Below are positions 2 to 19,377 of a DNA stretch of 32,000 nt, piece by piece; within the stretch, counting starts at the first letter, position 1, and each line of letters starts with the position of its first letter. The notes beneath the pieces are model-generated. The model ran no database searches and had not been told where the DNA came from. It was given only the letters and a program-made list of their open reading frames with translations. The stretch is from contig OY776328.1 of assembly GCA_963675515.1 (NCBI GenBank), forward strand, positions 420,001-452,000. Reading direction: 5' to 3'. The stretch is from Coprobacillaceae bacterium. Lineage in GTDB: Bacteria; Bacillota_I; Bacilli_A; Erysipelotrichales; Coprobacillaceae. Position numbers and translations under genes: made by a program.

Positions 2-670
2 ATCGCTATGGGGTATATCGCAAGTGCCGAACCTGCTGAGTATTTGGAAAAAAACCATAAGGTGCCATTCAACCTGATTCCGATGCCAGTAGGTGTTGGA
101 TTGACTGATAAATACGTTATGGCTTTACGTGACATCTCTCATCAAGAAACACCGAAAGTGTTGGAAGATGAACGTGGACGTTTGGTGGATTTGATGTTGG
201 ATTCACATGCTTATACATACAACAAGAAAGTTGCGATTTTCGGTGACCCTGATGTGGTTCATGGATTTACTTCACTGGCGCTGGAAATGGGAATGATTCC
301 TAAATATGTGATCACAGGAACTCCTAAATCTTCTTTCGAAAAACAAATCAAAGAATTGTTCGACCAATACGGTGTTGATAGTTCAGAGTGTGTAATCAAA
401 GCCGATACAGACTTGTTCTACTTGCACCAATTGATCAAAAACGAACCAGTTGATCTGTTATTGGGAAACTCATACGGTAAGCAAATTGCCAAAGCTGAAG
501 ATATTCCATTTGTCAGAATGGGATTCCCGGTATTGGACCGTTATGGTGATTCAATTCAAGCAACTGTCGGATATGCTGGGGCGATCCGATATGTTGAAAA
601 AATTCTGGACAAATTGATGGATAGAATGGACGAAGTTGCCGCAGACGAAGATTTCGAATTAGTAATGTAA
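2..670 (+). CDS. nifK: Nitrogenase MoFe-protein beta chain (NifK-type), C-terminal ~222 aa; 5' end lies outside the window
   Basis: The reading frame is open to the window start. Motifs ERGRLVDLMLDSH, VAIFGDPD, LLLGNSYGK and FVRMGFPVLDRYG match the conserved C-terminal domain of dinitrogenase beta subunits. nifE-nifN follow directly. NifK versus Vnf/AnfK cannot be settled from this fragment alone. Confidence 0.85.
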   Translation: MAMGYIASAEPAEYLEKNHKVPFNLIPMPVGVGLTDKYVMALRDISHQETPKVLEDERGRLVDLMLDSHAYTYNKKVAIFGDPDVVHGFTSLALEMGMIPKYVITGTPKSSFEKQIKELFDQYGVDSSECVIKADTDLFYLHQLIKNEPVDLLLGNSYGKQIAKAEDIPFVRMGFPVLDRYGDSIQATVGYAGAIRYVEKILDKLMDRMDEVAADEDFELVM

Positions 671-690
671 TAATTATTGCTGTTGTTTGT

Positions 691-716
691 AGCCGAAGAG
701 ACAAAATTCTTCGGCT
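691..716 (+). promoter_or_regulatory. Intercistronic stem-loop between nifK and nifE (possible mRNA stabiliser or partial terminator)
   Basis: 9-bp perfect stem AGCCGAAGA (691-699) / TCTTCGGCT (708-716) with an 8-nt loop. It is followed by GCAAATTTATT, so there is no strong U-tract. Confidence 0.45.
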
Positions 717-744
717 GCAAATTTATTAGAAGGAGGAATGCTCA

Positions 745-2106
745 ATGGTTAATACAATTAACAAAAATATCCTGGATGATCGTGAAAAGCATATAAAGAC
801 AAAGCAGACTGGTGGCTGTGGCGGTGATGGAATGCACTGTGACACAAACTCTGTCTCTGGTTCGGTAAGCCAAAGAGCTTGCGTGTATTGTGGCGCAAGG
901 GTTGTCTTGAATCCGATTACCGATGCCTATCATATCGTCCATGGACCTATTGGGTGTTCTAGTTATACATGGGATATCAGGGGAAGTCTTACCAGCGAGG
1001 AAGACATCTTCAGAAACAGTTTCTGCACGGATCTGCGGGAAACCGACATCATCTTCGGAGGAGCCGACAAGCTGGAAAAGGCAATTGACGAACTTTGTGA
1101 AAAACAAAGTCCCAAATTGGTGTTCGTTTACCAGACATGTATTGTCGGAGTCATCGGAGACGACGTTGAAGCGGTCTGCAAAAGAGCTGAAGAGAAGTTC
1201 CACATACCTGTCATACCAGTCAAATCACCAGGATTTTCTGGAAACAAGTCGACTGGATATAAAATGGCATGTAATGCCATCATGCAACTGCTGATGCCTT
1301 ACAAGGACATTCAAAAAGTCAAGGGTGTCAACATCCTGGGCGATTTCAACCTTGCGGGTGAAATGTGGATTATCAAAAATTACCTGGAAAAAATAGGGGT
1401 CAATGTAGTCTCTACGTTTACCGGTGATGCCAGTCATGACAACATGATTGAAGCTCCCGGGGCCACCTTAAATATAGTTCAATGTGCCGGTTCATCAACC
1501 TATCTGGCAAACAGAATGGAAGAAGAGTTTGGCATTCCTTTTATCAAGGTGAGTTTCTTTGGAATCGAGGACACGACCAACTCCCTGATCAGGATTGCTG
1601 AGGCTCTTGGAGATGAGAAGGCAAGAAGCAAAGCGGTCGAATTCTGTTCGACCGAAGGGAAGAAAGCCCAAGAGGCTATCGACAAATACCGCATGAACCT
1701 TGAAGGTAAAAAAGCGGCGATTTATGTAGGAGGTGGCTTCAAGGCCATCTCGCTGATCAAACAGTTCAATGCCGTGGGGATGGATACCGTACTTGTCGGC
1801 ACCCAGACCGGAAAAAAAGACGACTATGAAATGATCGAGAGTCTGGTCAACGATGACACGGTCATTCTCGATGACGCCAATCCGGCGGAACTCGAAGCGT
1901 TCATGATTGAAAAGAGCGCCGATATACTGGTTGGGGGAGTCAAAGAGCGGCCGCTGGCATACAAGCTGGGTGTCGCCTTCTGTGACCACAACCATGAAAG
2001 AAAACATGCCCTGGCTGGATTTGAAGGGATCTACAATTTCATTGAAGAGATCAACGACAGTATCAACAGTCCGGTCTGGGGATTCATCAAGGAGGGCAAT
2101 TTATGA
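745..2106 (+). CDS. nifE: Nitrogenase FeMo-cofactor biosynthesis scaffold protein NifE
   Basis: SD AAGGAGG (730-736) lies 8 nt upstream of the ATG. Translated motifs CVYCGARVVLNPITDAYHIVHGPIGC, VYQTCIVGVIGDD, NIVQCAGS and LGVAFCDHNHE are typical of NifE (NifD paralog). Position between nifK and nifN. Confidence 0.9.
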   Translation: MVNTINKNILDDREKHIKTKQTGGCGGDGMHCDTNSVSGSVSQRACVYCGARVVLNPITDAYHIVHGPIGCSSYTWDIRGSLTSEEDIFRNSFCTDLRETDIIFGGADKLEKAIDELCEKQSPKLVFVYQTCIVGVIGDDVEAVCKRAEEKFHIPVIPVKSPGFSGNKSTGYKMACNAIMQLLMPYKDIQKVKGVNILGDFNLAGEMWIIKNYLEKIGVNVVSTFTGDASHDNMIEAPGATLNIVQCAGSSTYLANRMEEEFGIPFIKVSFFGIEDTTNSLIRIAEALGDEKARSKAVEFCSTEGKKAQEAIDKYRMNLEGKKAAIYVGGGFKAISLIKQFNAVGMDTVLVGTQTGKKDDYEMIESLVNDDTVILDDANPAELEAFMIEKSADILVGGVKERPLAYKLGVAFCDHNHERKHALAGFEGIYNFIEEINDSINSPVWGFIKEGNL

Positions 2107-4775
2107 AAAGTAAGGTAAAACCTTTAGTAAATCTGAATACGAACCCTTGCAAGATGTGTATGCCGATGGGGGCGACTAACGCACTTTATGGGATCAAGGA
2201 ATGCATGACCATTCTCCATGGTTCCCAGGGGTGTGCGACCTACATTCGACGCCATATGGCTACCCATTACAATGAACCGATCGACATAGCTTCATCTTCA
2301 TTGACTGAAGAGGGTACTGTCTATGGCGGGCACAACAACCTTAAAAAAGGATTGCTGAACCTGATCAGCCTGTACCACCCCAAAGTTATCGGAATCATGA
2401 CAACATGTCTGGCTGAAACAATCGGAGAAGACATCGAAGGAATAACCGAAAGCTTCTATGAGGAAAATCCTCAGCATCGGGATATCACGATAATTCCGGT
2501 TCAAACACCGGGGTATTCGGGTACCCAGTATGAAGGTTACATGGCTGCGCTTTGTTCCGTCGCTGACAAACTGGATATGGATCTCACACCTAACGAAAAA
2601 GTTAATGTCATCCTGCCGCCACACAGCCCTGCCGATCTCCGTTTCATCAAACAGGAGTTCGCCCGGTTTGGAGTCGATGCCATCTTCCTTCCTGACAACT
2701 CCGACAACCTTGATGGCGGACATGAAAAACGCTATTCGAGATTGCCGCTGGGCGGGACACCGATCGAGGAACTGCGGAAAATGGCCGGTGCCCGGCTGAC
2801 TATCGAAATGACCGATGTTGATGGCAAGCTCTCGCCAGGCAAGGTCCTGAAAGAGAAATACGGGGTGGAGTACATCCAGATAAACAGCCCGATCGGTCTA
2901 AGAGCGATCGATAAGTTCTACAAGACACTCAAGGAGGTTTCCAAGAAGGAAATTCCTGCGGACATCCAGAAACAAAGAGACCGTTATCTTGACGGGATGA
3001 TCGATTCCCACAAGTACAATTCTGGCGGGAGAGCAGTCATCTTCGGGGAACCGGAATTTGTCATTTCGACAGTCAAGCTTTGCGAGGAAAACGGAATCAT
3101 GCCGGTCGTTGTCACTACCGGGAACGTGTTCCCGGAGCTGGACAAGTACGTAAGACCAACCCTGCAGTCGATGGCGAAAGGTTACTTCATCGATGAATTC
3201 ATCATCGCCGATGATGTCGATTTCAAGGAAATCGAGGAATTCGCGATCAAGACGGGAGCGAACCTGATGATCGGGAACTCGGATGGCAGAAGACTCGAGG
3301 AACATCTTGGGATTCCTTTGGTAAGACGGGCTTTCCCGATCCATGATCGAATCGGAGGCCAACGTTTGAGAACTCTTGGTTATGAAGGGAGTCTGACATA
3401 CCTGGATGATATCACCAATGCCATCCTGGCGCAGACCGAAACCGGGTTCAGGGAAGAAGCGTATGAAAAATATTACAAAGGGTCTGTGGCTCAACAGAAA
3501 AAACTAGCTAAAGAAGCCACAATCGCAACAAGCGTGGCCAAAGGAGAAGCGGTTATGAATGATATCGAAAAGAAAACCAAAGAACATCCGTGTTATACAT
3601 GCGGTGATCATAAATATGCAAGAATCCATCTGCCAGTTGCACCTTCTTGTAATGTCCAATGCAACTATTGCGTAAGAAAATTCGACTGCGTCAATGAAAG
3701 CCGGCCGGGAGTGACTTCTACAGTCCTTACTCCTGAACAGGCGTTCGATCGCTACAAAGCGGTCAAGGAAAAAATGCCTAACCTGACTGTTGTGGGAATC
3801 GCCGGGCCGGGAGATGCCTGCGGTGAAAGTTTCCCACAAGTCAAAAAGACACTGGAACTTATCCGCGAATATGACCCTGAAGTCACATTCTGTGTGTCGA
3901 CAAACGGGTTGATGCTCCCTCAAAGAGCCAATGATTTGATCGAGCTTGGAGTAAGCCATATTACTGTCACCATGAGTGCGGTAGATCCGGTTATTGCAGG
4001 TAAGATATATAAATATGTCAACTATATGGGTGAGAAATATGAAGGTACTCCAGCCGGTGCGATCATCCTATCAAACCAGCTGGCCGGGTTGCAGATGCTT
4101 ATCGACAAAGGCATTGTCTGCAAGGTCAATATCGTCACATTGAAAGGCATCAATGACCACCATATCAAAACCGTGGTTGAAAAATGCAAGGAGATGGGTA
4201 TCTTCATCACCAACATCATGCAGATGATTCCAGTCAAAGGAAGCGCCTTTGAAAACCTGCCGATGGTAAGCATGAAAGAAATCACGGAACTAAGAAAAGA
4301 ATGCGATACAATCCTGAAGCAGATGTATCATTGCAGACAATGTCGTGCCGATGCCGTAGGTACTCTCGACAATGATGTCTCAGTCGATCTCAAAGCCTTC
4401 TTTGAAGAAGAAAAGGCCAAAGAAGCAGCGGCTGCTGCGCCAGTAAAATTTGCAGTGGCTTCTAAGAGCGGAATCAATGTGGATCTCCACTTTGGCAAGG
4501 CAGCTGAATTCTACATTTACAATTTTGAAAAGGGTGAAATCAGATTTGTGGAAAAACGCAACGTTGACAAGTACTGCAGTGGCAATGACGAATGTGATGA
4601 TCATGACAGCAAAATTGCCAAGATCGTTTCGGCTATTGGGGATTGCAAAGTGGTCCTGGCGATGCGGATTGGCGAATCACCAAAAGAACTGTTGAGCGAA
4701 AAAGGAATCCGGGCGATTTCAACATTTGCGAATATCGAAACCGCAATCCAGGCGACTGCGACAAATCTAATCTAA
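2103..4775 (+). CDS. nifN-B: NifN-NifB fusion protein with a C-terminal NifX/NafY-like domain (clostridial NifN-B type)
   Basis: ATGA start/stop overlap with nifE. The N-terminal ~450 aa is NifN-like (ILHGSQGCATY, LMIGNS, PLVRRAFPIHDRIGG). The central part carries the radical-SAM motif CNVQCNYC (nt 3648-3671) within a NifB-like core (VVGIAGPGD, SHITVTM). The C-terminal ~110 aa (about nt 4440-4772; KFAVASKSGINVDLHFGKAAEFYIY ... GDCKVVLAMRIGESP) has the dinitrogenase FeMo-cofactor-binding (NifX/NifB-C) fold signature. Confidence 0.9.
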   Translation: MKSKVKPLVNLNTNPCKMCMPMGATNALYGIKECMTILHGSQGCATYIRRHMATHYNEPIDIASSSLTEEGTVYGGHNNLKKGLLNLISLYHPKVIGIMTTCLAETIGEDIEGITESFYEENPQHRDITIIPVQTPGYSGTQYEGYMAALCSVADKLDMDLTPNEKVNVILPPHSPADLRFIKQEFARFGVDAIFLPDNSDNLDGGHEKRYSRLPLGGTPIEELRKMAGARLTIEMTDVDGKLSPGKVLKEKYGVEYIQINSPIGLRAIDKFYKTLKEVSKKEIPADIQKQRDRYLDGMIDSHKYNSGGRAVIFGEPEFVISTVKLCEENGIMPVVVTTGNVFPELDKYVRPTLQSMAKGYFIDEFIIADDVDFKEIEEFAIKTGANLMIGNSDGRRLEEHLGIPLVRRAFPIHDRIGGQRLRTLGYEGSLTYLDDITNAILAQTETGFREEAYEKYYKGSVAQQKKLAKEATIATSVAKGEAVMNDIEKKTKEHPCYTCGDHKYARIHLPVAPSCNVQCNYCVRKFDCVNESRPGVTSTVLTPEQAFDRYKAVKEKMPNLTVVGIAGPGDACGESFPQVKKTLELIREYDPEVTFCVSTNGLMLPQRANDLIELGVSHITVTMSAVDPVIAGKIYKYVNYMGEKYEGTPAGAIILSNQLAGLQMLIDKGIVCKVNIVTLKGINDHHIKTVVEKCKEMGIFITNIMQMIPVKGSAFENLPMVSMKEITELRKECDTILKQMYHCRQCRADAVGTLDNDVSVDLKAFFEEEKAKEAAAAAPVKFAVASKSGINVDLHFGKAAEFYIYNFEKGEIRFVEKRNVDKYCSGNDECDDHDSKIAKIVSAIGDCKVVLAMRIGESPKELLSEKGIRAISTFANIETAIQATATNLI

Positions 4776-4790
4776 TAGGAGGATTGAACA

Positions 4791-5099
4791 ATGATTCAAC
4801 CAAAATATCATGTATTCATCTGTGCGAGCAGCAGAATTAACGGGCAACAAAGAGGGTATTGCCACCAACAGAAAAGCGTCAACCTTATCCAGTCATTCAT
4901 GCAGGAAATCGAGGATCGGGAACTAAGCGGTGATGTGATGATCACGAATACCGGATGCTTTGGCATCTGCGAAAAGGGACCGGTGGTAGTTGTCTATCCT
5001 GAGGGTGTCTGGTACGGAAATGTCAGCGAGGCTGACGTTGAAGAAATCTTCGATGAACATTTTGAAGGTGGGAAACCTGTAGAAAGACTGATGATCTAA
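4791..5099 (+). CDS. fdxA: Thioredoxin-like [2Fe-2S] ferredoxin (Clostridium pasteurianum 2Fe-Fd type)
   Basis: 102 aa with Cys at residues 11, 24, 56 and 60. This is the same length and ligand spacing known for the C. pasteurianum [2Fe-2S] ferredoxin, and the same position after nifN-B. SD AGGAGG lies upstream (about 4777-4782). Confidence 0.85.
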   Translation: MIQPKYHVFICASSRINGQQRGYCHQQKSVNLIQSFMQEIEDRELSGDVMITNTGCFGICEKGPVVVVYPEGVWYGNVSEADVEEIFDEHFEGGKPVERLMI

Positions 5100-5128
5100 A
5101 ATTAAAAAAATGTGATGGGGGTGGTTTT

Positions 5129-6109
5129 ATGGGATTCGTTATAGATGCCACATTGAGTGTGCTGGACGATTACAACCTTGGTAATGAGGATATTTGTGAA
5201 TTTATCGATCTTATCCGCAATCTTGGGATCAGGAACATCAAGATCTCATCAAAGATTCTTGGAGCAATTGAAGGGCAGTTGCCGGGTAATATCACCTATT
5301 ATATCGATTCGCTTGATAACGGTGTGACCGATTGCGATTCGCTGTCGAACAATATCCTCCGCTTTTCCCATCATGACACCATTTCAATCCACCACAACAT
5401 CCGCACCCGCGAAGTCAATGAAGTGATATTTGATCAGGATGGCTTCATATGTGATATGGTCCATCTCAAAGGTTTCGATTCATTGATACTCGATGGCAGT
5501 GAAGGCATTCTTGACCGGCTGGACCGAAGGATATCATATGAAAAACTGATTGTGACTCCCGGGGACAGCCATCGGTGCGCCAATGCGATCGCCTATCTGT
5601 TTTTACAAAGGGGTGTCCATGGGGTTATTACCACTTTGACCGGTGTTTCAAATCACGCATCGACCGAACAGGTAGTGATGGCCCGCCAGGTCATAGCAGG
5701 CTGTGACATCTATGATGTCTCTGTGTTTTCCAGACTGGCTGACTGGTTCGAGCGGGTGACTGCGGCTAAGATACCGCCTCACTTTCCGGTTTTGGGCAAA
5801 AGAATATTCCATGTCGAATCGGGGGTCCATGTCGATGGCATTCTCAAAAGGTCATCCAACTATGAACCATACAGTCCCAGTCTGGTCGGGCTCAAGCGGG
5901 AAATAGTGATTGGCAAACTGTCGGGAAGGGCATCCATCAATTACAAGTTGAGAATGCTTCTTGATCAGTCAAGATCGAAAAGCGATATTGATCTGATCCT
6001 TCAAAGGGTCAGGCAGCTTTCAATCGTTAAAAAGGGCAAGTTGACCGATGAGGACTTTGTCACTATCGTAAAGGAGTTGGATGTCTGTGAAGAATATAAA
6101 AATAGTTGA
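5129..6109 (+). CDS. nifV-omega: Homocitrate synthase omega subunit (NifV-omega): degenerate TIM-barrel plus conserved C-terminal segment
   Basis: The C-terminal part HVESGVHVDGILKRSSNYEPYSPSLVGLKREIVIGKLSGRAS aligns with the NifV/IPMS-family segment HEAGIHVDGLLK...YE...P..vG....lvlGKhSG. The N-terminal part resembles the barrel, but catalytic motifs are lost (VIDATLSVLDD instead of DxTLRDGxQ; no HxH). Gene order omega-alpha as in C. pasteurianum. Confidence 0.75.
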   Translation: MGFVIDATLSVLDDYNLGNEDICEFIDLIRNLGIRNIKISSKILGAIEGQLPGNITYYIDSLDNGVTDCDSLSNNILRFSHHDTISIHHNIRTREVNEVIFDQDGFICDMVHLKGFDSLILDGSEGILDRLDRRISYEKLIVTPGDSHRCANAIAYLFLQRGVHGVITTLTGVSNHASTEQVVMARQVIAGCDIYDVSVFSRLADWFERVTAAKIPPHFPVLGKRIFHVESGVHVDGILKRSSNYEPYSPSLVGLKREIVIGKLSGRASINYKLRMLLDQSRSKSDIDLILQRVRQLSIVKKGKLTDEDFVTIVKELDVCEEYKNS

Positions 6110-6884
6110 TTCAACCCTGCGTGATGGATTGCAGCAGCCGGGCATTCATCTCACAAACGAGCAGAAACTGAAAATCGCATTGCTTCTTGACAAGATGAAT
6201 GTTTATGAAATCGAGCTGGGCGTCTATGACTGGAATGGTGAAGACAGAGATTTCTATGAAACGCTAATGGAAGAAAAGAAGAATTCGAAAGTGTCACTTT
6301 GGTCGCGGCTGAACAAGACCGATGTGGAACAAACGTGTCTCCATCAACCCGACATCATCCATATCTCGATACCTGTTAGCGATATCCAGATAGCATCCAA
6401 AATGCATACCGACAAATCCTCTTTGGAAAAGCGGTTGCTGGAGTGCCTTGAAGTCGCCAATCAATACAAGATCGATGTCACACTGGGACTGGAAGACGCT
6501 TCCCGGGCCGAACTGGAATATCTTATCGATATTTCCAAACTGGCCAAACAAAACAATGTGAAGACAATCCGGCTGGCCGATACGGTTGGAGTGTACACAC
6601 CGGTGAGTGCTTTGGAGGCTATTGAAGCCATCAAGAAGGAAGTGGATATCGCCATTGAAGTGCACGAACACAATGACTTCGGGATGGCAATTGCCAACTC
6701 GATCACGATGCTCAACGGAGGGGCCGATTACATGGACTGCACATTGTTGGGGATCGGTGAAAGGACAGGCAATTGCGACCTCAGGGAATTCATAGAGGCT
6801 ACAAGAGATTACTATGATTCAAGAACCGATATCGGTGCCCTTGAAGAACTGGACGAATATATTAAAGAAATACTGATAGAATGA
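6081..6884 (+). CDS. nifV-alpha: Homocitrate synthase alpha subunit (NifV-alpha), catalytic HMGL-like barrel
   Basis: VDSTLRDGLQQPG, EVHEHNDFGMAIANS and LLGIGERTGNCDL are catalytic-barrel motifs of homocitrate / 2-isopropylmalate synthases. The protein stops where the NifV C-terminal domain would begin. It overlaps the nifV-omega stop. The start could be ATG 6081 or GTG 6087. Confidence 0.85.
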   Translation: MSVKNIKIVDSTLRDGLQQPGIHLTNEQKLKIALLLDKMNVYEIELGVYDWNGEDRDFYETLMEEKKNSKVSLWSRLNKTDVEQTCLHQPDIIHISIPVSDIQIASKMHTDKSSLEKRLLECLEVANQYKIDVTLGLEDASRAELEYLIDISKLAKQNNVKTIRLADTVGVYTPVSALEAIEAIKKEVDIAIEVHEHNDFGMAIANSITMLNGGADYMDCTLLGIGERTGNCDLREFIEATRDYYDSRTDIGALEELDEYIKEILIE

Positions 6885-6903
6885 TTGGGATTGCTGCAGG
6901 CAG

Positions 6904-7197
6904 GTGAATATGGAATCGAAAATTTTAAGACTCAAACCGGGCTATATTTTAAGGGAATTGGGCGGTGAGTTCTGCATATTTAATGAACTGGATAGTAATG
7001 CGGGATCACTTCTGGGATTGCCTTCGGTCAACGAGACATGCGCATTTCTCTGGAACCGGCTGGAAATCGGGGCCGTGAAGGAAGAGCTGGTCAAAGCGGT
7101 GATGATCGAATGCGACCTTGAAGAAGATGACGCCTTATATGAGGTTCATGAAGTGTTGGCAAAGCTGATTCATGGCCGGATTATTGAAACGGAGTAG
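6904..7197 (+). CDS. PqqD-family-like small protein (putative RiPP-recognition-element / peptide chaperone fold)
   Basis: 97 aa. The pattern LKPGYILRELGGEFCIF...SLLGLPSVNETCAFLWNRLE..VKEELVKAVMIECDLEEDDALYEVHEVLAKLIHGRII matches the PqqD layout (short beta strands, LNETaa..w, then D..eFl..L...gli). It starts 19 nt after the nifV-alpha stop. The start is ambiguous (GTG 6904 or ATG 6910) and the SD is weak. Confidence 0.6.
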   Translation: MNMESKILRLKPGYILRELGGEFCIFNELDSNAGSLLGLPSVNETCAFLWNRLEIGAVKEELVKAVMIECDLEEDDALYEVHEVLAKLIHGRIIETE

Positions 7198-7207
7198 GAG
7201 ATTAATT

Positions 7208-7837
7208 ATGAAGAAAATTGCTGTATTCTTGAATGAGGATAAGAAACTGGATAATTTTTACAATTGCAATACGATAATGATATACGGCGGAGGGGTGAGC
7301 GAGTGCCTGGTTCTTGACGAACAGGCATTTGACAAGATCACGCCGACATCAACCAGGGTGATAATCGACCAGACCGGCGACATATCAGAGAAAGTCGACG
7401 ACTGCAGCGCAATCGTATTTGGCGAAATCGCCGGGGTCGCATATTCCGTATTCGACAAAGCCAAATTCAAGATATTCACAATTGAAGAAAATTCTCCAGA
7501 TGCAATCATATCAATCTTCCGCGACTTGTTTGAGTTGGACAAGGAAATCGCCAAGAAAAAGGAAGCCCTTCTAGAACTCAAACCGCATGAAACAAGCGAA
7601 CCAGGCATCTATTATTTCGATCTGTTCACAGCCTTGCAGGACAATCCGGAAGTGTCTTCGAAAAAAATGTTGAAGGAATTTTTCGACAGTATTCCCTTTG
7701 TCATGCTGAAAATGAAAGTCAACCATATGCCACCATGGATTGAGCGCGATGGAAGATTCAATGTCGCATCGGATGAACAACAACCGATCCAAACTGTAGT
7801 TGTCACAAAGAAAAAATGTAATCAGGAGGACAGATAA
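7208..7837 (+). CDS. NifX/NafY-fold N-terminal domain protein, possibly AnfO family (nitrogenase accessory)
   Basis: SD TAGGAG (7195-7200) lies 7 nt before ATG 7208. The longer 7172 start merely overlaps the previous gene. MKKIAVFLNED...DDCSAIVFGEIAGVAYSVFDKAKFKIFTIE resembles the FeMo-cofactor-binding domain layout (MKIAv..., gC..vi...iG..a...L...gikv). Overall size (~209 aa) and nif context are reminiscent of AnfO. The family assignment is not verified. Confidence 0.55.
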   Translation: MKKIAVFLNEDKKLDNFYNCNTIMIYGGGVSECLVLDEQAFDKITPTSTRVIIDQTGDISEKVDDCSAIVFGEIAGVAYSVFDKAKFKIFTIEENSPDAIISIFRDLFELDKEIAKKKEALLELKPHETSEPGIYYFDLFTALQDNPEVSSKKMLKEFFDSIPFVMLKMKVNHMPPWIERDGRFNVASDEQQPIQTVVVTKKKCNQEDR

Positions 7838-8821
7838 ATGATGAACTATATGGTATTAGATGAAGAGCACATTCAAATGGAATTTGGAATTATCGGAGCT
7901 GTTACCTCGTTTCGAAAATATCCTTCGGGAGAACTGGAAAGTGTCAATGTCAGTGATATGAACATGGTGGTGACTCACGCTGGTGAGCTTATACCCGCCT
8001 ATACGACAACCGCCCGCAGAAAACAAAAACCCTCAATCACATTCAGCCGCAGCGGTCTGATCAAATCGGTCCATATGGAAGAACAGACTGAAATCGAAAC
8101 ACCGATCGGCACATTGCCTGCTGAATATGTGACCTTCTATGAAACCGGCGAAGTACACCGTGTATTTGTGACTGACGGACAAATCAGCGGCTTCTGGAGC
8201 GAGGAGGATGAGATGGAATATGTGATTCCTCTTACCTTTGAATTTGATTTCGCTAAATTCACCGCCCGGACAAACGGGATATGCTTCTATCGAAGCGGTG
8301 CGATAAAATCGATCACCCTCTATCCAGGAGAAGAAATAGAATTGCAGACTCCGGCTGGAAAGATGAAAACGAAAATCGGTTTCTCGCTCTATGAAAACGG
8401 GGAACTCGAATCGGTTGAGCCTAGCAGTGAAGTGCTGATCAACACACCGATTGGAATGTTTACGGCATCTGATTCGATGGCGGTGGGAGTGAATGCTGAC
8501 AAGAACTCGATCAAATTCAATGAATCAGGGGTGTTGGTTTCTTTCAAGACATCGGATCAAAGAGTCGTTGTCACAACTGACGAAGGAAGTTTCAAGATAT
8601 TCATGCCGGTTGAAGTGCCTCATCCGCTCCTGGATGATATGCCAATGCTGCTGCCAATGGAGATCAATTTCGACTTCAAAAAGGACACAGTCACCATCAA
8701 GACCGACAAAACCGGAGAATTCTCAATGGAAAAAGACAAGTTTGTCGTATCCCAACTGCCTAAAGACGGTCCGGGATGTTCGCCGGTTGATTGTGCGACA
8801 TGTTCAATCTGCAACAATTAA
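7838..8821 (+). CDS. Repeat protein (6-7 MORN/YwqK-like beta-hairpin repeats) with C-terminal CX4CX2CX2C tail; function unknown
   Basis: SD AGGAGG (7824-7829). The ATG immediately follows the previous stop. Repeated core [FY]-x-[SNT]-G-x-[LIV]-x-S-[VIF] occurs at residues 28, 69, 100, 150, 184 and 227 (YPSGELESV, FSRSGLIKSV, FYETGEVHRV, FYRSGAIKSI, LYENGELESV, FNESGVLVSF), often followed by ..TP[IA]G. The tail is GPGCSPVDCATCSICNN (Cys codons within 8777-8812). Confidence 0.7.
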   Translation: MMNYMVLDEEHIQMEFGIIGAVTSFRKYPSGELESVNVSDMNMVVTHAGELIPAYTTTARRKQKPSITFSRSGLIKSVHMEEQTEIETPIGTLPAEYVTFYETGEVHRVFVTDGQISGFWSEEDEMEYVIPLTFEFDFAKFTARTNGICFYRSGAIKSITLYPGEEIELQTPAGKMKTKIGFSLYENGELESVEPSSEVLINTPIGMFTASDSMAVGVNADKNSIKFNESGVLVSFKTSDQRVVVTTDEGSFKIFMPVEVPHPLLDDMPMLLPMEINFDFKKDTVTIKTDKTGEFSMEKDKFVVSQLPKDGPGCSPVDCATCSICNN

Positions 8822-8915: not shown

Positions 8916-8950
8916 CAAAAAAGGAAAGCTGTCATAGAAGCTGCTTTCCC
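8916..8950 (-). terminator. Rho-independent terminator of the regulator gene (minus strand)
   Basis: On the minus strand, GGAAAGC...GCTTTCC (plus coordinates 8923-8929 / 8944-8950) encloses the stop codon and is followed by TTTTTT (complement of A6 at 8917-8922). Confidence 0.6.
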
Positions 8951-9876
8951 ATATTTGTCACGTCGTATGCCTGCAGGGCGGAAACCTGTTCCTTGAATTC
9001 GTCGGACTGGATTATCCTGATCATCTGGGCGATTTCAGGACGCTTCAAGTCGCTTTTGCGCACCGCAAGATCGTATTGTTCCTGTTTTGCGAAGACGAAA
9101 TCGATATTGGGGAACTGGTTCGCGACACTTTTGGTTCCCCAGGCGCAATCGGCACCGCCCTTTGCGACCAGTGCGGCTGCTGCCAGGTGGGAGTTGACGG
9201 TTCGAGAATAACCGGCCACTTGCTCGTGCTCGATGCCCGTAGCCTTCATCAAAGAATCGGTAAGGACGCGGATACCGCTGCCTCTTTCCCGGTTCACCAT
9301 GATCACATCAGGGCGGGAAAGATCCTCGATGCCGATTATGTTTTTCGGATTGCCTTTTTTCACATATATCCCGACTGGCCGATTGGCGATATGGTAGAGA
9401 TTTATTTCCTCGCCAGGAAGCAGGCTTTTTATGAACGGAATATTGTAGGTGTCCGTTTCCATGTCCCATAGATGGGTTGTGGCCACGGTCACATTGCGTT
9501 TGTACATCGAATACAAGCCGTTGTAGCTTCCCTGATAAGACCTGATGAACTGGGTCCCATGCAATTGCTGGTTGACCGCCGAACAAAGCATGTCGATAAT
9601 CAGATCCTGCCCACAGACAATGATGTTTGTCGAAGAATCGGCGGCATCGGTCGTTGTCACATCCTGGTCGATAGTTGTTATGGCCTGCTCCAAAGGAGGT
9701 TTAGGACTGGTAGCGCCCGGATCCAAGAGGGCGTAAACATCGGATTCCCATATTCGAAATTGCTTGCCCACTTTGGTGGCCGGCAGTCTGTTTTTCTTGA
9801 TCATGTCATATATCGTATTCTGCCTTACTTTAAGGATGGCAGCCGCTTCCTTTGGCGATATCAGTTTTCTGTTCAT
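8932..9876 (-). CDS. Transcriptional regulator: excisionase/MerR-like HTH fused to a periplasmic-binding-protein-like (putative oxyanion/molybdate-sensing) domain
   Basis: The N-terminus ISPKEAAAILKVRQNTIYDMIKKNRLPATKVGKQFRIWESDV is a classic HTH_17/excisionase-type motif. The C-terminal ~230 aa has the PBP-like domain pattern found fused to HTH or MoeA in anaerobes. SD AGGAGAGG (complement of 9884-9891). Divergent from modABC. Confidence 0.7.
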   Translation of the reverse strand: MNRKLISPKEAAAILKVRQNTIYDMIKKNRLPATKVGKQFRIWESDVYALLDPGATSPKPPLEQAITTIDQDVTTTDAADSSTNIIVCGQDLIIDMLCSAVNQQLHGTQFIRSYQGSYNGLYSMYKRNVTVATTHLWDMETDTYNIPFIKSLLPGEEINLYHIANRPVGIYVKKGNPKNIIGIEDLSRPDVIMVNRERGSGIRVLTDSLMKATGIEHEQVAGYSRTVNSHLAAAALVAKGGADCAWGTKSVANQFPNIDFVFAKQEQYDLAVRKSDLKRPEIAQMIRIIQSDEFKEQVSALQAYDVTNMGKQLL

Positions 9877-9902
9877 AAGAGTTCCTCTCCTGCGTATTGG
9901 CT

Positions 9903-9908
9903 ATTATA
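9903..9908 (-). promoter_or_regulatory. Candidate -10 box (TATAAT on the minus strand) for the regulator gene
   Basis: The complement of ATTATA at 9903-9908 reads TATAAT, about 27 nt upstream of the start codon. Only a weak -35 (TTTGCT-like) is visible. Confidence 0.3.
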
Positions 9909-10015
9909 AGTATACCAAATCCAAAGCAAATACACTAGAAAAAAACACTAAACATAAAAAAACATAACAAACATGATAAAAACGTAATAAAACGCATTAA
10001 TAAATGAAAACAAAC

Positions 10016-10044
10016 TTGACAAAACATTATTATTGAGATAATAT
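10016..10044 (+). promoter_or_regulatory. Sigma-A-type promoter of modABC
   Basis: TTGACA (10016-10021), 17-nt spacer, TAATAT (10039-10044). Confidence 0.7.
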
Positions 10045-10092
10045 TGTCTTATCAACAAAGGGCTGTTCGGACTTCATTTATTTGTTGATAAG
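10037..10092. promoter_or_regulatory. Candidate operator region: GATAA-N7-TTATC palindrome over the -10 box, plus a perfect 12-bp inverted repeat
   Basis: GATAA (10037-10041), N7, TTATC (10049-10053). CTTATCAACAAA (10048-10059) and its exact reverse complement TTTGTTGATAAG (10081-10092) are separated by 21 nt. The 3' arm abuts the SD GGGGGAGGG. Confidence 0.55.
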
Positions 10093-10107
10093 GGGGAGGG
10101 TATTGCC

Positions 10108-10953
10108 ATGGAAAGAAATGTTTATGAATTGACGAGGTTTTACAAGGCTGTAAAAACAGTCAAGATGATTGGATTCTCATTTTTGATATTGTCGCTTGTC
10201 GGGTGTGGCCAGGCAACCGCAAATACAACAATCGAGCAGTTGACATTTGGCGATGTGGATACTGACAATGTGACAACTATCGCTTTGGGGAATTCTGATG
10301 TTCCGGTCGGGCAGTATTCACAGGAAATTTTCACAAATATGGGAGTGTGGGACAATATTCAATCAAAGATCTCTTATTGTTCGAATGTGAAAGACGTATT
10401 GTCGCAAGTTGAACAGGGGGCAGTCGACTGTGGGGTTGTTTACGCGACTGATGCGGCGACAAGCACTGGTGTGACGGTGGCTGATCTGGCGACCAGTGAG
10501 GAATTGCCTGTTGATGTGAGTTATCCGGTTGCGATAACTGCAAGTTCAACACAAAAGCAGGCGGCAGCGGTCTTCTTGAACTTCCTGCTGACTGACACAG
10601 CCAAAGCGGAATTCGAGAAAGTCGGATTCACAATGGACACAAACAAGACCAGCGAGGATATGGAATTCACAGATGACGTGACCCTGACCGTATTTGGCGC
10701 TGCAAGTCTGACCGAATCGCTGAGTGCCATCGAAACCGGGTTTGAGGAAGCTTATCCAAGCATCGATCTTGAAATAAATCTAAATTCCAGCGGGACCTTG
10801 AAAACCCAGATCGAACAAGGGGCTCAGGCTGATGTGTTCTTCTCAGCAGCCCAAAAACAGATGACCGGTCTGATCGAGGGTGGCTATATCGACGAGTCGA
10901 CCAAAATTGATTTGTTGGTAAATCGGGTCGTACTGATTGTACCTGCTCAATAA
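10108..10953 (+). CDS. modA: Molybdate ABC transporter substrate-binding lipoprotein, apparently circularly permuted ModA
   Basis: Strong SD GGGGGAGGG lies 7 nt upstream. Lipobox LSLVGC (Cys33). Residues ~57-176 (IALGNSDVPVGQY...NVKDVL...CGVVYATDA...YPVAI...KVGFT) align with the C-terminal half of canonical ModA. Residues ~191-281 (LTVFGAASLTESL...NLNSSGTL..QIEQGAQADVFFSA...NRVVLIVPA) align with its N-terminal half. Confidence 0.8.
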   Translation: MERNVYELTRFYKAVKTVKMIGFSFLILSLVGCGQATANTTIEQLTFGDVDTDNVTTIALGNSDVPVGQYSQEIFTNMGVWDNIQSKISYCSNVKDVLSQVEQGAVDCGVVYATDAATSTGVTVADLATSEELPVDVSYPVAITASSTQKQAAAVFLNFLLTDTAKAEFEKVGFTMDTNKTSEDMEFTDDVTLTVFGAASLTESLSAIETGFEEAYPSIDLEINLNSSGTLKTQIEQGAQADVFFSAAQKQMTGLIEGGYIDESTKIDLLVNRVVLIVPAQ

Positions 10954-10967
10954 AATAAGAAAGGGGA

Positions 10968-11645
10968 TTGGTGATTATGGACTATTTTCCGCTCTTCAAC
11001 TCAATCAGGATATCTTTGATAGCGACCGTAATCACCTTTTTCCTTGGTATCTTATGCGCATATTATATTGTGAAGTTGCCCCGGGTGATAAAGGGAGTTC
11101 TTGATACATTGCTTACCATTCCGATGGTGTTGCCCCCTACGGTAGTCGGTTTCATGATTCTGATAGTGATTTCGCCAAAAAGCGCCCTGGGCAAGCTGGT
11201 GGCAACTTACTTCAATACGACATTGACGATGAAATGGTACAGCGCGATCTTTGCGGTAGTGATGGTCACTTTTCCGCTGATGTATCGGACAGTGCGAAGT
11301 TCATTTGAATCGTTCGACCAGAATATTATCGCAAGTGCGAAAACATTGTGCCTGTCCAACACATACATTTTCTGGCATATCATCCTGCCAAACTGCAAGG
11401 AAGGCATTATCGCGGGAATCGTACTGGCCTTTGCGCGAGGTCTGGGGGAATACGGTGCTACGAGCATGGTGGCGGGCTATATCGCCGGAAAGACTTCTAC
11501 CATCGCCACGACAGTCGCTTATCTCTGGCAGACAAACCAGGACGGGGCGGCAATGAACTGGGTATTGATCAATCTTGCGATCTCGTTTGTGATCATGACT
11601 CTGGTCAATGTTTTTGAAAAGCAGGTCAGTATCGGAAGGAAGTGA
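10968..11645 (+). CDS. modB: Molybdate ABC transporter permease ModB
   Basis: Multi-TM protein with the EAA-loop region ASAKTLCLSNTYIFWHIILPNCKEGIIAGIVLAFARGLGEYGATSMVAG, typical of ModB/CysTW permeases. The start is likely ATG 10977 (SD AAAGGGGA at 10959-10966) rather than TTG 10968. Confidence 0.85.
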   Translation: MVIMDYFPLFNSIRISLIATVITFFLGILCAYYIVKLPRVIKGVLDTLLTIPMVLPPTVVGFMILIVISPKSALGKLVATYFNTTLTMKWYSAIFAVVMVTFPLMYRTVRSSFESFDQNIIASAKTLCLSNTYIFWHIILPNCKEGIIAGIVLAFARGLGEYGATSMVAGYIAGKTSTIATTVAYLWQTNQDGAAMNWVLINLAISFVIMTLVNVFEKQVSIGRK

Positions 11646-11649
11646 ATCA

Positions 11650-12717
11650 ATGTCTATCACATGCAGGATAAAAAAGAAACTGGGCAATTTCAATCTGGAC
11701 ATAGATTTTTCGGTTGACAGGGAAACTGTTGCATTGATCGGGGCTTCGGGATGTGGCAAAAGCGTTACTCTTAGATGCATTGCCGGGATTGAGACTCCCG
11801 ATGAGGGGCTGATCGTCATCAACGGGAAAGTGGTGTTCGACTCCAAAAGGAAAATCAACCTGGCACCTCAGAAAAGGAAAGTCGGTTACCTGTTCCAGGA
11901 TTATGCCCTTTTTCCCAATATGACAGTCGAAAGGAACATCAAAGCCGTGGTACCCAAGGGTGTTCCATATGATATCGATGAGATATTGGCCCGGTTTCAC
12001 CTTCTTGACCAGAAGGATCTGTATCCCCGGGAACTATCCGGGGGCCAGAAACAGCGCTGCGCCCTGGCCCGGATAATCGTGACCGACCCGGAAATAATCC
12101 TTTTGGACGAGCCGTTTTCCGCACTGGACAGTTATTTGCGCTGGCAGATGGAGCAGGAGGTCGTGTCGGTTATCCAACAGGCGAACAAACCTGCGATATT
12201 CGTATCCCATGACCGTGATGAGGTTTACCGGATCTCCGACAAAGTTGTTGTGGTCAATGAAGGAAAAAGTGACGAAATCCTGGAGAAACACATGCTCTAC
12301 CAGCATCCAAAGACATATGCGGATGCCCTGCTTACCGGATGCAAGAACATCTGCGAGGTTGAAATAAAGGGCGGCCATTTGCGAGCAAAAGACTTTGAAA
12401 TCACCATTCCTTATGATAAGATGAATGTGGGTGAAGCATTTCATCACGACAGGATACCGGCATCAATATCATATCTGGGAATAAGATCCAAGAAGATATT
12501 GCCTGCCCATCTGGCAGGTGGAGCTGGCGAAGTTGTCGTAATATCCTACGATATCGAAAGCGTAGCTGAGGGGTTATTTACCTATACACTGATGATCAGG
12601 CCTGAAAATGCGAAGAAAAGCATGTGCTGGGAAGTGTCGAAAGAAGTATATCGCAAACTTCAAGACCATCCCCGCAAAATCGCGATTCCGTTGAATGAAT
12701 GTTTATTGCTGGAATAA
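11650..12717 (+). CDS. modC: Molybdate ABC transporter ATP-binding protein ModC (with C-terminal TOBE-like region)
   Basis: SD GGAAGGAAG precedes ATG 11650. Walker A GASGCGKS, signature LSGGQKQR, Walker B ILLDEP, H-loop VSHD. The extra ~130-aa C-terminal domain is as in ModC/CysA. The 11608 start overlaps modB and is less likely. Confidence 0.85.
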   Translation: MSITCRIKKKLGNFNLDIDFSVDRETVALIGASGCGKSVTLRCIAGIETPDEGLIVINGKVVFDSKRKINLAPQKRKVGYLFQDYALFPNMTVERNIKAVVPKGVPYDIDEILARFHLLDQKDLYPRELSGGQKQRCALARIIVTDPEIILLDEPFSALDSYLRWQMEQEVVSVIQQANKPAIFVSHDRDEVYRISDKVVVVNEGKSDEILEKHMLYQHPKTYADALLTGCKNICEVEIKGGHLRAKDFEITIPYDKMNVGEAFHHDRIPASISYLGIRSKKILPAHLAGGAGEVVVISYDIESVAEGLFTYTLMIRPENAKKSMCWEVSKEVYRKLQDHPRKIAIPLNECLLLE

Positions 12718-13241: not shown

Positions 13242-14882
13242 ATGACTTTAGGACAAATTGACTGGCCGTTGATTCTCGGTGGTCTGGGACTATTCCTGTT
13301 CGGGATCGATTATATGGGCAATGGCTTGAAATCATTTGCCGGAGACGGTTTGAAAGACATAATTGACCGGTATACCAAAACCCCGTTTCATGGAATAATT
13401 GTAGGTACATTAATTACCTGTCTGATTCAATCATCATCAGGGACAACCGCCCTGACAATCGGATTGATCAGGTCGGGTCTGATGACTTTTCCCCAGGCAA
13501 TCGGGGTCATCATGGGGGCGAATATCGGGACAACAATCACGGCTTTCATCGTCGGATTGAAAATTTCGGAATATGCAGTATACTTCATAATTTTGGGGGC
13601 TGTGCTGATCATGTTCTCGTCAAGAAAAAGAATGAAGTATTTTGGGCAGATCCTATTTGGATTTGGGTGTCTGTTCTATGGTCTGGATCTGATGGGAGAC
13701 AACCTCAAACTCATATCGAAAGTCCCTGAGTTCACCCAGGCGACTGAAGTGCTTTCGGCCAATCCGCTGCTGGCATTGTTTGGTGGGACAGTGATGACGA
13801 TGGCGATTCAGTCATCATCAGCGGTTATCGCGATTGTCCAACAGATGTACGGCGTGGGCGCAATAACGCTGTCGATATCGTTGCCTTTCTTGTTCGGATC
13901 GAATATCGGGACAACAATCACAGCTATACTGGCTGCCTTTGGGGGTTCGACATCCTCAAAACGGGCCGCAACATATCATGTCATCTTCAATGTCTTTGGA
14001 ACGGTGCTGTTCATGTGCCTGCTGGCGCCATTCACAATGCTTGTTGTGAATTTGAGCCAATCGTTGCAGACGACTCCGGAGATGTCGCTGGCGATGGCCC
14101 ATGGGATCTTCAACATCACGACAACAGCCCTGATGTACCCGCTGATCCATACCAATGAAAAGCTGATCAAGAAACTGATCAAGAAAAAATCTTATGAGGT
14201 CGAGGTCGACCTGTCGACACTTGATGAAGATGTTGTGGGATTGTTCCCGGAAGCTTCATTGAATCTGGCGATCGAGCAGACGACAAAGATGGGGGCGTTG
14301 ACCTGCGAGCTGATATCGAGCGCGAAGGCATATTTCGATTCTGGAGTTCAGTCGAAAGCTGATTCCTGTCAGGAACTTGAAAATGCGATCAATATCATGG
14401 AAAAGAAACTTACCGTCTACCTGGCAAATATTCCTCATGAGAAGTTCGACGAACACACGGCAATTATGTACATCAATTCAAGCAAAATAATAAAGGATTT
14501 TGAACTTATCGCCGATCTTGGCGTGCGCCTTGTTTCCCTTTTTGAACAGATGAAGGATTCAAATGAGAACATGCACGAAAAGACCCGCGAAGAAATCGGT
14601 GAGCTGATGGCAATCGCGGTTGACCTGATTGACAAGACCTATATGGTTTACAAGGAATACAGCTATGATCTGGCTGAGGAAGTTGATGCGGGCGAATCGC
14701 TGCTTGATATCAAATATCATGAATTCAAAGACGCCCATGTCCACCGCGTCTTGAACAAGCAAGAACGGACCAATGTGATCAACTCGTTGTATGATGATAC
14801 CGCGAGTCTGATTGAAAGAATTGGCGACTATTGTCAGTCAATCAGTGAGAACGTTGCAAATATCAAAGGTGAATTAGTCTAA
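13242..14882 (+). CDS. Na+/phosphate cotransporter family protein with PhoU-like C-terminal domain
   Basis: Duplicated Na/Pi-cotransporter repeats (QSSSGTTALTIGL... and QSSSAVIAIVQ...GSNIGTTITA). A ~200-aa soluble helical C-terminus resembles the PhoU-like domains of NptA/YjbB-type proteins. Confidence 0.85.
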   Translation: MTLGQIDWPLILGGLGLFLFGIDYMGNGLKSFAGDGLKDIIDRYTKTPFHGIIVGTLITCLIQSSSGTTALTIGLIRSGLMTFPQAIGVIMGANIGTTITAFIVGLKISEYAVYFIILGAVLIMFSSRKRMKYFGQILFGFGCLFYGLDLMGDNLKLISKVPEFTQATEVLSANPLLALFGGTVMTMAIQSSSAVIAIVQQMYGVGAITLSISLPFLFGSNIGTTITAILAAFGGSTSSKRAATYHVIFNVFGTVLFMCLLAPFTMLVVNLSQSLQTTPEMSLAMAHGIFNITTTALMYPLIHTNEKLIKKLIKKKSYEVEVDLSTLDEDVVGLFPEASLNLAIEQTTKMGALTCELISSAKAYFDSGVQSKADSCQELENAINIMEKKLTVYLANIPHEKFDEHTAIMYINSSKIIKDFELIADLGVRLVSLFEQMKDSNENMHEKTREEIGELMAIAVDLIDKTYMVYKEYSYDLAEEVDAGESLLDIKYHEFKDAHVHRVLNKQERTNVINSLYDDTASLIERIGDYCQSISENVANIKGELV

Positions 14883-19159: not shown

Positions 19160-19377
19160 GTTTCAAATCGATGATGTGGACTAGTAAATGTATCAACACG
19201 GCAAAGAGATGGAATGGCGCTGGGAATTTCCACCGGAAATATATTGAATTCACCACGGAGAGCGACTAATCATCGCCGTTAACTACGTTACAGTAATCAA
19301 GCGCATGGCATTTATTCTAGTGTCATGAAGTAGGATGGTACCGCGATTATTTCGTTCCTATACAGGAACGTTTTTTT
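19160..19377 (+). promoter_or_regulatory. T-box riboswitch leader (Phe specifier) with terminator
   Basis: Stem I elements GAUGAUG...ACUAGUAAAUG and AGAGA. Candidate specifier GAA-UUC-A (UUC at 19249-19251). T-box sequence GGAUGGUACCGCG (19333-19345). Terminator CGTTCC (19353-19358) / GGAACG (19365-19370) plus T7. Confidence 0.85.

Follow-up and report, generated by a model that had tools for sequence, protein, structure and literature searches.

The 32-kb stretch of DNA analysed here (contig OY776328.1 of a Coprobacillaceae bacterium, positions 420,001–452,000; hereafter the window) carries on its forward strand a modA gene for a substrate-binding lipoprotein (10108–10953) in which the two parts of the ModA chain stand in circularly permuted order. 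The gene is an intact open reading frame (ORF) of 281 codons and a stop, and its ATG is preceded by a GGGGGAGGG Shine-Dalgarno sequence at a spacing of 7 nt. Reading of the sequence gives a signal peptide that runs to the lipobox LVGC (10108–10206), with Cys33 at 10204–10206, and then a tether of residues 34–47 (10207–10248) that is variable in length and of low complexity in homologs. Segment A (residues 48–176; 10249–10635) corresponds in phmmer alignments to canonical ModA residues ~103–229 and takes in the greater part of lobe II together with the second hinge strand and lobe I's C-terminal helices. The linker DTNKTSEDMEFTDD (residues 177–190; 10636–10677, placed by counting) leads from the ancestral C-terminus to the ancestral N-terminus. 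Segment B (residues 191–281; 10678–10950), matched by phmmer to canonical residues ~3–94, contains the N-terminal part of lobe I and the first hinge strand, and ends two residues past LIVP. The motifs VPVGQY (65–70), SNVKD (92–96) and VVYATDA (110–116) lie in segment A, and GAASL (197–201) and NSSGT (226–230) in segment B.

We compared the protein with all PDB sequences by phmmer. Residues 3–94 of C. difficile ModA (4KD5) align to query residues 188–279 (i-Evalue 9e-13) and residues 103–229 to query residues 48–174 (1e-18); in E. coli ModA (4XXU) residues 24–114 align to 188–279 and residues 138–256 to 57–176, and the ModAs of Klebsiella, Xanthomonas and Acinetobacter are swapped likewise. Every one of the 14 ModA-type PDB sequences matched in two reported stretches is swapped relative to the query, and none of the solved ModA structures covered by this search has the permuted order. 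The family profiles also match in two stretches: Pfam SBP_bac_11 (PF13531) at 133.4 bits (cutoff 25) and TIGR01256 modA at 137.2 bits (cutoff 62.5), the two TIGR01256 stretches being swapped. The full-length equivalog NF007958 scores 121.7 bits, under its cutoff of 253. The protein thus passes the score cutoffs of the ModA family and does not align to it as one collinear stretch. With a canonical ModA as tblastn query against the whole window, only the two pieces of the permuted ORF match, so each ModA part is present once, and the same search detects no second modA in the 32 kb. These results bear out the layout proposed in the initial annotation of this DNA: an intact ORF with a Shine-Dalgarno sequence and a lipobox, the normally C-terminal segment placed first, each half occurring once, an acidic linker at exactly nt 10636–10677, all named ligand motifs retained, and modB as the next gene. 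Alignment against canonical ModA returns two pieces in reversed order and no collinear match.

The permuted chain is predicted to adopt the ModA fold. We modelled the mature protein with AlphaFold2 using a 75-sequence alignment of group 1, the relatives with the same order described below, and obtained a predicted local distance difference test (pLDDT) score of 92.1 and a predicted template modelling (pTM) score of 0.84; the control model, of the canonical relative P0111, has a pLDDT of 92.2. The pLDDT falls below 50 for the first 8 mature residues, which belong to the tether; the other residues are not disordered, and the 10-residue blocks that cover the linker score 94–95. When the sequence is de-permuted by placing mature residues 151–249 ahead of residues 1–150, it is collinear with P0111 over 234 aa at 54% identity, and the DSSP assignments of the two models agree at 95.3%. 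Without the swap, just 137 residues align to P0111. Foldseek searches of the PDB place ModA structures at the very top for the P0111 model (4KD5 over 230 columns, TMt 0.95). The permuted model matches 4KD5 only locally (67–72 columns, root-mean-square deviation 0.9), and its full-length sequential matches are to other class II binding proteins at TM 0.4–0.57, among them B. subtilis OpuAC (2B4M and 2B4L; TMq 0.54 for 2B4M). This behaviour, a local match to ModA and a full-length one to OpuAC, agrees with the published permutation relation between ModA and OpuAC (PMC2395249), and the pattern is, as far as the predicted model goes, that expected for a permutant.

The swapped order recurs in many other proteins. 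Pooled over all searches, 78 protein clusters at 90% identity have the same order and the same breakpoint, and we refer to them as group 1. Among the best 120 clusters listed in a search of 5.8 billion proteins, 75 are permuted (49–72% identical to the query) and 45 are canonical ModAs (50–62% identity per half); a scan of 1.84 billion representatives at 50% identity contains three group 1 representatives. The members come from NCBI genomes and metagenome-assembled genomes (Lachnospiraceae, Clostridiales, Anaerotignaceae) and from JGI, ENA and Logan assemblies, and include one isolate genome, Anaerocolumna xylanovorans DSM 12503, whose protein (WP_073590188.1) is labelled as an ordinary ModA. 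The folded part of group 1 proteins starts I-x-S-F-E-D-V-N-T-D-K-V-S-L-I-A-L-G-N-S-D and the C-terminus lies two residues past VVLIVP, at the same position in 75/75 aligned sequences. Almost every full-length sequence in the group 1 alignment begins with a hydrophobic stretch that ends in [AGS]-C, and the linker is kept in length and variable in sequence. The swapped arrangement is inherited and conserved, and is no one-off. Most group 1 members have a Cys directly before the T-L-N-V-F-A-A-A-S-L strand, where the window protein has Val (V191) and canonical relatives have no Cys at the matching position. We considered this linker Cys as a remnant of a lipobox and dropped the idea, given that it is absent from the window protein and that the gap from lipobox to strand 1 in canonical proteins is 15–45 residues.

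The oxyanion ligands of E. coli ModA (1AMF) are Ser12, Ser39, Ala125 (NH), Val152 (NH) and Tyr170. Their equivalents in the phmmer alignment are S200, S228, V67, V94 and Y112; S200, S228 and Y112 are invariant in 75/75 group 1 sequences and V67 and V94 are kept in 74/75, within a total of 40 invariant alignment columns. The closest relative locus among those returned, L085 (Logan assembly of SRR23823845), carries a permuted modA at 6001–6867 that is 69% identical to the window gene (10108–10953) at the amino-acid level, with a nonsynonymous substitution rate (dN) of 0.21 and a synonymous rate (dS) of 1.9. The resulting dN/dS is 0.11 for the whole gene and, by segment, 0.10 (A) and 0.05 (B), values that are rough because dS is near saturation; on these estimates the selection acting on the permuted modA is purifying. 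Taken with the confident model and the conserved operon, the 78 clusters and the invariant ligands strongly support the initial annotation's view that the gene encodes a functional permutant and is no pseudogene. The permuted ModA is real, widespread in Clostridia and very probably functional.

Compared with canonical ModA (TIGR01256/SBP_bac_11; 1AMF and 1WOD from E. coli, 4KD5 from C. difficile), each permuted segment is 38–57% identical, the oxyanion-ligand residues and the modB and modC partners are the same, and the predicted secondary-structure elements match one to one once the chain is de-permuted. The permuted protein differs in its swapped chain, in new termini that fall in a lobe II loop near E. 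coli residue 92/93, in a linker of ~14 aa across the old termini, and in a lipid anchor on lobe II. We propose, with high though not complete confidence, that the ORF encodes a circularly permuted ModA that functions as the lipid-anchored molybdate-binding component of a ModABC importer. The chain would start in a surface loop of lobe II just past the first hinge strand, at about residue 92/93 of mature E. coli ModA, build lobe II, and return along the second hinge strand to lobe I, entering it at the C-terminal helices. From there it would cross the old termini by the linker of ~14 residues, complete the remainder of lobe I, and end with the first hinge strand inserted in lobe II. The permutation would leave the fold intact, along with the two hinge crossings and the oxyanion site between the lobes, with Ser200, Ser228, the backbone NH groups of Val67 and Val94, and Tyr112 as the probable ligands. 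The changes would be a lobe I formed from one unbroken stretch of sequence and a lipid tether attached to lobe II. Molybdate would presumably be handed on to ModB2C2.

The permuted modA is the first gene of a mod operon. The modB permease gene follows at 10968–11645 on the forward strand (Pfam BPD_transp_1) and is 74–96% identical and adjacent to modA in L001–L003, L005, L084 and L085; the modC ATPase gene (11608–12717, forward strand, ABC_tran) keeps the same conserved adjacency. The protein is therefore encoded together with modB and modC, as members of the ModA family are. On the reverse strand, at 8932–9876, lies a divergent gene for a regulator with HTH_17 and PBP_like (PF12727) Pfam domains, a candidate oxyanion sensor controlling the mod operon; it is also found upstream of modA in L001, L084, L085 and L082. 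Downstream of modC, a Na/Pi cotransporter gene with PhoU domains occupies 13242–14882 and is 95% identical in L085.

A nif cluster, assigned by Pfam, fills positions 8–7837 on the forward strand. It opens with the C-terminal end of a nitrogenase component 1 gene, followed by nifE (745–2106) and by a nifN–nifB fusion (2103–4775) of 890 aa with a C-terminal Nitro_FeMo-Co domain, and it includes a nifV split into two genes (5129–6109 and 6081–6884) and genes for a thioredoxin-like ferredoxin, a PqqD-like protein and an AnfO-like protein. Next, at 7838–8821, is a gene for a 327-aa protein with a Cys-rich tail, CSPVDCATCSICNN, and no Pfam match. This gene is 55–91% identical in L001, L002, L084 and L085, where it is flanked by the AnfO-like gene on one side and by the mod regulator or modA on the other; in its position, it is consistent with a nif- or molybdenum (Mo)-related role. 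The arrangement of nif genes, 327-aa gene and permuted modA–modB–modC recurs in L001, L002, L084 (A. xylanovorans) and L085, with the regulator between the 327-aa gene and modA in L001, L084 and L085 and none detected there in L002. Since the mod operon stands at the end of the nif cluster, the role of the permuted ModA is most likely high-affinity Mo uptake that feeds synthesis of the iron–molybdenum cofactor (FeMo-cofactor), as inferred from the gene context.

The region between the regulator and modA has several candidate control elements. A sigma-70-like promoter (TTGACA, 17 nt, TAATAT) lies at 10016–10044 on the forward strand, identified by consensus match only (10/12 positions), and a TTGACA-like element is also found upstream of modA in L085, L084 and L001. 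A perfect 12-nt inverted repeat, CTTATCAACAAA / TTTGTTGATAAG, with a 21-nt spacer (10048–10092, forward strand) ends just ahead of the Shine-Dalgarno sequence; by eye, a shorter form of it is seen in the L085 upstream sequence. Repeated AAACATAA-like motifs in the AT-rich intergenic stretch 9877–10107, present also in L084, L085 and L001, may be operator sites. No Moco riboswitch or other RNA element upstream of modA matched Rfam at the gathering threshold. The sole Rfam match is a T-box leader (RF00230, 104 bits) at 19162–19362 on the forward strand, which is unrelated to modA.

The scan of 50%-identity representatives also returned permuted ModAs with a different breakpoint (P0141, P0142 and P0201), and a search seeded with P0141 expanded these to 33 clusters, which we call group 2. 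In the coordinates of a hidden Markov model (HMM) of canonical ModA, group 1 proteins start at ~125–135 and end at ~125–130, and group 2 proteins start at ~140–150 and end at ~140–145; these coordinates place the group 2 cut ~20 residues later, on the far side of the short SFEDL helix. Group 2 is accompanied by forms that contain more than a single ModA copy. P0274 (468 aa; L082, 4497–5903) has two ModA copies in tandem, and a search seeded with it found seven further full tandem ModA–ModA fusions (P0389–P0395, 518–582 aa), whose copies are mutually 80–96% identical, or 80–98% when P0274 is included. Some of these seven occur on as many as 7 contigs, which reach 133 kb, or have as many as 50 member sequences. 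P0276 (406 aa) consists of a signal, an N-part, a C-part, a linker and a second N-part (N'-part), followed by a stop, and hence is truncated on one side. Two less complete cases are P0306, whose contig begins within a first ModA copy, and P0452, which reads B+A+B and looks truncated. A different kind of double binding protein is represented by P0396 and P0404 (Pseudoflavonifractor sp. AF19-9AC), of ~525 aa, in which a canonical ModA is joined to a distant SBP_bac_11-type domain that starts LMIYCGAGM, the halves being 26–30% identical.

The forms around group 2 share their gene neighbourhood. Tandem fusions lie upstream of modB–modC–TOBE in several metagenomic lineages. The order MoCF_biosynth–modA–modB–modC is common to the tandem P0393 (L088, modA at 5001–6563) and the permuted P0290 (L086, at least 23 contigs), and P0276 shares modA–modB–modC–TOBE with L088, its own contig (L081) ending before the upstream gene. 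The C-part and N'-part of P0276 are nearest to subgroup 2b of the permuted proteins (distance 0.12–0.19, vs at least 0.26 to any canonical protein), and the P0276 and subgroup 2b linkers are recognisably homologous (GFAPVGDTVPAAEAAETEKVELVVF vs GFSPVGETIPAAEAAETEPVELIVF). As read from their sequences, the group 2 forms are the series predicted by permutation by duplication (PMC3320104).

We built neighbour-joining trees for each half separately, which are distance-based and rest on short alignments of 86 and 114 columns. Group 1 forms a near-exclusive clade in the trees of both halves (Jaccard 0.975–0.987). Groups 1 and 2 are joined in one clade (Jaccard at least 0.95) in 0 of 100 bootstrap replicates for either half, and group 2 itself breaks up into three or more subgroups with canonical sequences between them. 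At least two permutation events appear to be the simplest reading, because there are two distinct breakpoints. We consider it somewhat more probable than its opposite that ModA was permuted at least twice independently in Clostridia, by cuts ~20 residues apart flanking one lobe II helix, with one lineage keeping canonical, tandem, one-side-truncated and permuted stages in syntenic mod loci and the lineage of the window tied to nif.

A plausible route to the permuted gene has three steps. Tandem duplication of modA with in-frame fusion would have come first; a stop codon would have removed the distal C-part, and an in-frame deletion that spared the signal peptide would have removed the proximal N-part. 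For a secreted protein, N-terminal trimming must be such an in-frame deletion that keeps the signal peptide, and not simply a new start codon. The order of the steps in the group 1 lineage is inferred by analogy with group 2. An origin by tandem duplication, fusion and terminal truncation, as the initial annotation had suggested, finds indirect support in the tandem and half-truncated forms at syntenic group 2 loci, but no such form was found for group 1 itself among the best matches. Several proteins were examined as group 1 intermediates and set aside: P0137, P0144, P0158, P0182, P0255 and others are canonical ModAs with N-terminal extensions, and P0195 appears to be a read-through.

Several observations weigh against parts of this account. 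The origin of group 1 rests on analogy with the group 2 intermediates, and no tandem or half-truncated group 1 form was present among the best 120 matches or among the best 150 representatives at 50% identity. P0276 is known from one 3,989-bp metagenome scaffold (L081). The repeat in L082 contains a gap of N letters, and we considered P0274 as a chimeric assembly for this reason, but tandem fusions occur independently on many long contigs, which makes the tandem architecture credible. Lastly, the permuted modA evolves faster than most of its flanking genes, which are 84–96% identical to their L085 counterparts with dS of 0.8–1.1. This suggests either faster evolution or allelic replacement of a surface-exposed binding protein; the AnfO-like gene is a second outlier in the comparison (72% identity, dS 1.6).

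Other explanations of the swapped order were weighed against a functional, permuted ModA. The window being a single sequence, one could suspect an assembly error, a rearrangement of recent date or a pseudogene pieced together from modA fragments, with a protein that would be non-functional. This is extremely improbable: 78 independent clusters, an isolate genome among them, share the order and the breakpoint, the ORF is uninterrupted and has both a signal peptide and a Shine-Dalgarno sequence, the ligand positions are conserved, dN/dS is 0.11 and pLDDT is 92, and tblastn detects no second modA in the window. Conservation effectively refutes an artefact. A real permuted binding protein could instead have shifted in function, to tungstate or another oxyanion, or to sensing or storage in place of delivery to ModBC. 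Its gene evolves faster than its neighbours, its tether sits on the other lobe, and the operon has a regulator with a PBP domain of its own; moreover, proteins of the ModA family commonly bind both Mo and tungsten. We nevertheless regard a shift of function as unlikely, given that the five molybdate-ligand positions are kept and invariant, that the nearest solved relatives are all ModAs, and that the gene is the first of modA–modB–modC with no other binding-protein gene present. The adjacency to nif in at least five genomes also speaks against it and argues for Mo supply.

A further alternative concerns the origin only. Group 1 could have arisen by fission of modA and re-fusion of the pieces in the opposite order, or by some other rearrangement, and fission/fusion and duplication are both accepted mechanisms of permutation (PMC3320104). 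The lack of a group 1 tandem or half-truncated form among the best matches would fit such a history. However, no search returned modA halves as separate genes, the short P0136, P0200 and P0236 keep the canonical order and look like incomplete gene calls, and a split binding protein would require two export signals. The sister lineage, in turn, holds tandem fusions and a one-side-truncated form, and the group 1 linker opens with the GF-x-MA tail typical of canonical C-termini. We judge fission and re-fusion to be unlikely, and retain duplication, fusion and trimming as the proposed origin of the permuted ModA.

Permuted orders among class II binding proteins are already published at the level of the superfamily. 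The CPSARST study of Lo and Lyu (2008) reported circular-permutation relations among glycine-betaine binding proteins (2B4L, 1R9L, 1SW1), ModA (1AMF, 1ATG) and CysB at <24% identity (PMC2395249). The relation of OpuAC/ProX to ModA/CysB shows that the ModA fold tolerates alternative chain order; it holds between families and was derived from structures (PMC2395249). The permuted ModA, unlike that case, lies within the ModA family, shares 54% identity with collinear relatives, and has a breakpoint and a linker that can be seen in the sequence. Full-text literature searches turned up no account of either a permuted ModA or ModA tandem fusions, consistent with the initial annotation's remark that it was not aware of a permuted ModA having been described, next to the structural relation of ModA to OpuAC, ProX and CysB published in 2008. 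Permutation by duplication with extant intermediates is documented for DNA methyltransferases and for saposin/swaposin (reviewed in PMC3320104). As in those systems, the ModA family has canonical, tandem, one-side-truncated and permuted forms. Unlike them, ModA is secreted, its signal peptide would have been retained through an in-frame deletion, and one family has two breakpoints, with the intermediates found in group 2 and not in group 1.

Few natural circular permutants fall inside one well-studied family, particularly with collinear relatives as close as ~54% identity, and fewer still are accompanied by surviving tandem and half-trimmed intermediates. The finding has a practical side for annotation, as the permuted proteins carry an ordinary ModA label and fail full-length equivalogs, and collinear alignments or trees will misplace them. 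For engineering, the two natural cut sites and their linkers mark where the ModA scaffold accepts new termini, which is useful for biosensor design. The interest lies chiefly in protein evolution and engineering, and knowledge of molybdate uptake is unchanged by the permuted ModA. Because ModA is small and soluble, has a simple ligand and is represented by many crystal structures, the four forms lend themselves to side-by-side comparison of folding, hinge dynamics, affinity and ModB docking. If at least two independent permutations did take place, ModA would be a natural and tractable series for the re-threading of a secreted two-lobed binding protein with its function kept.

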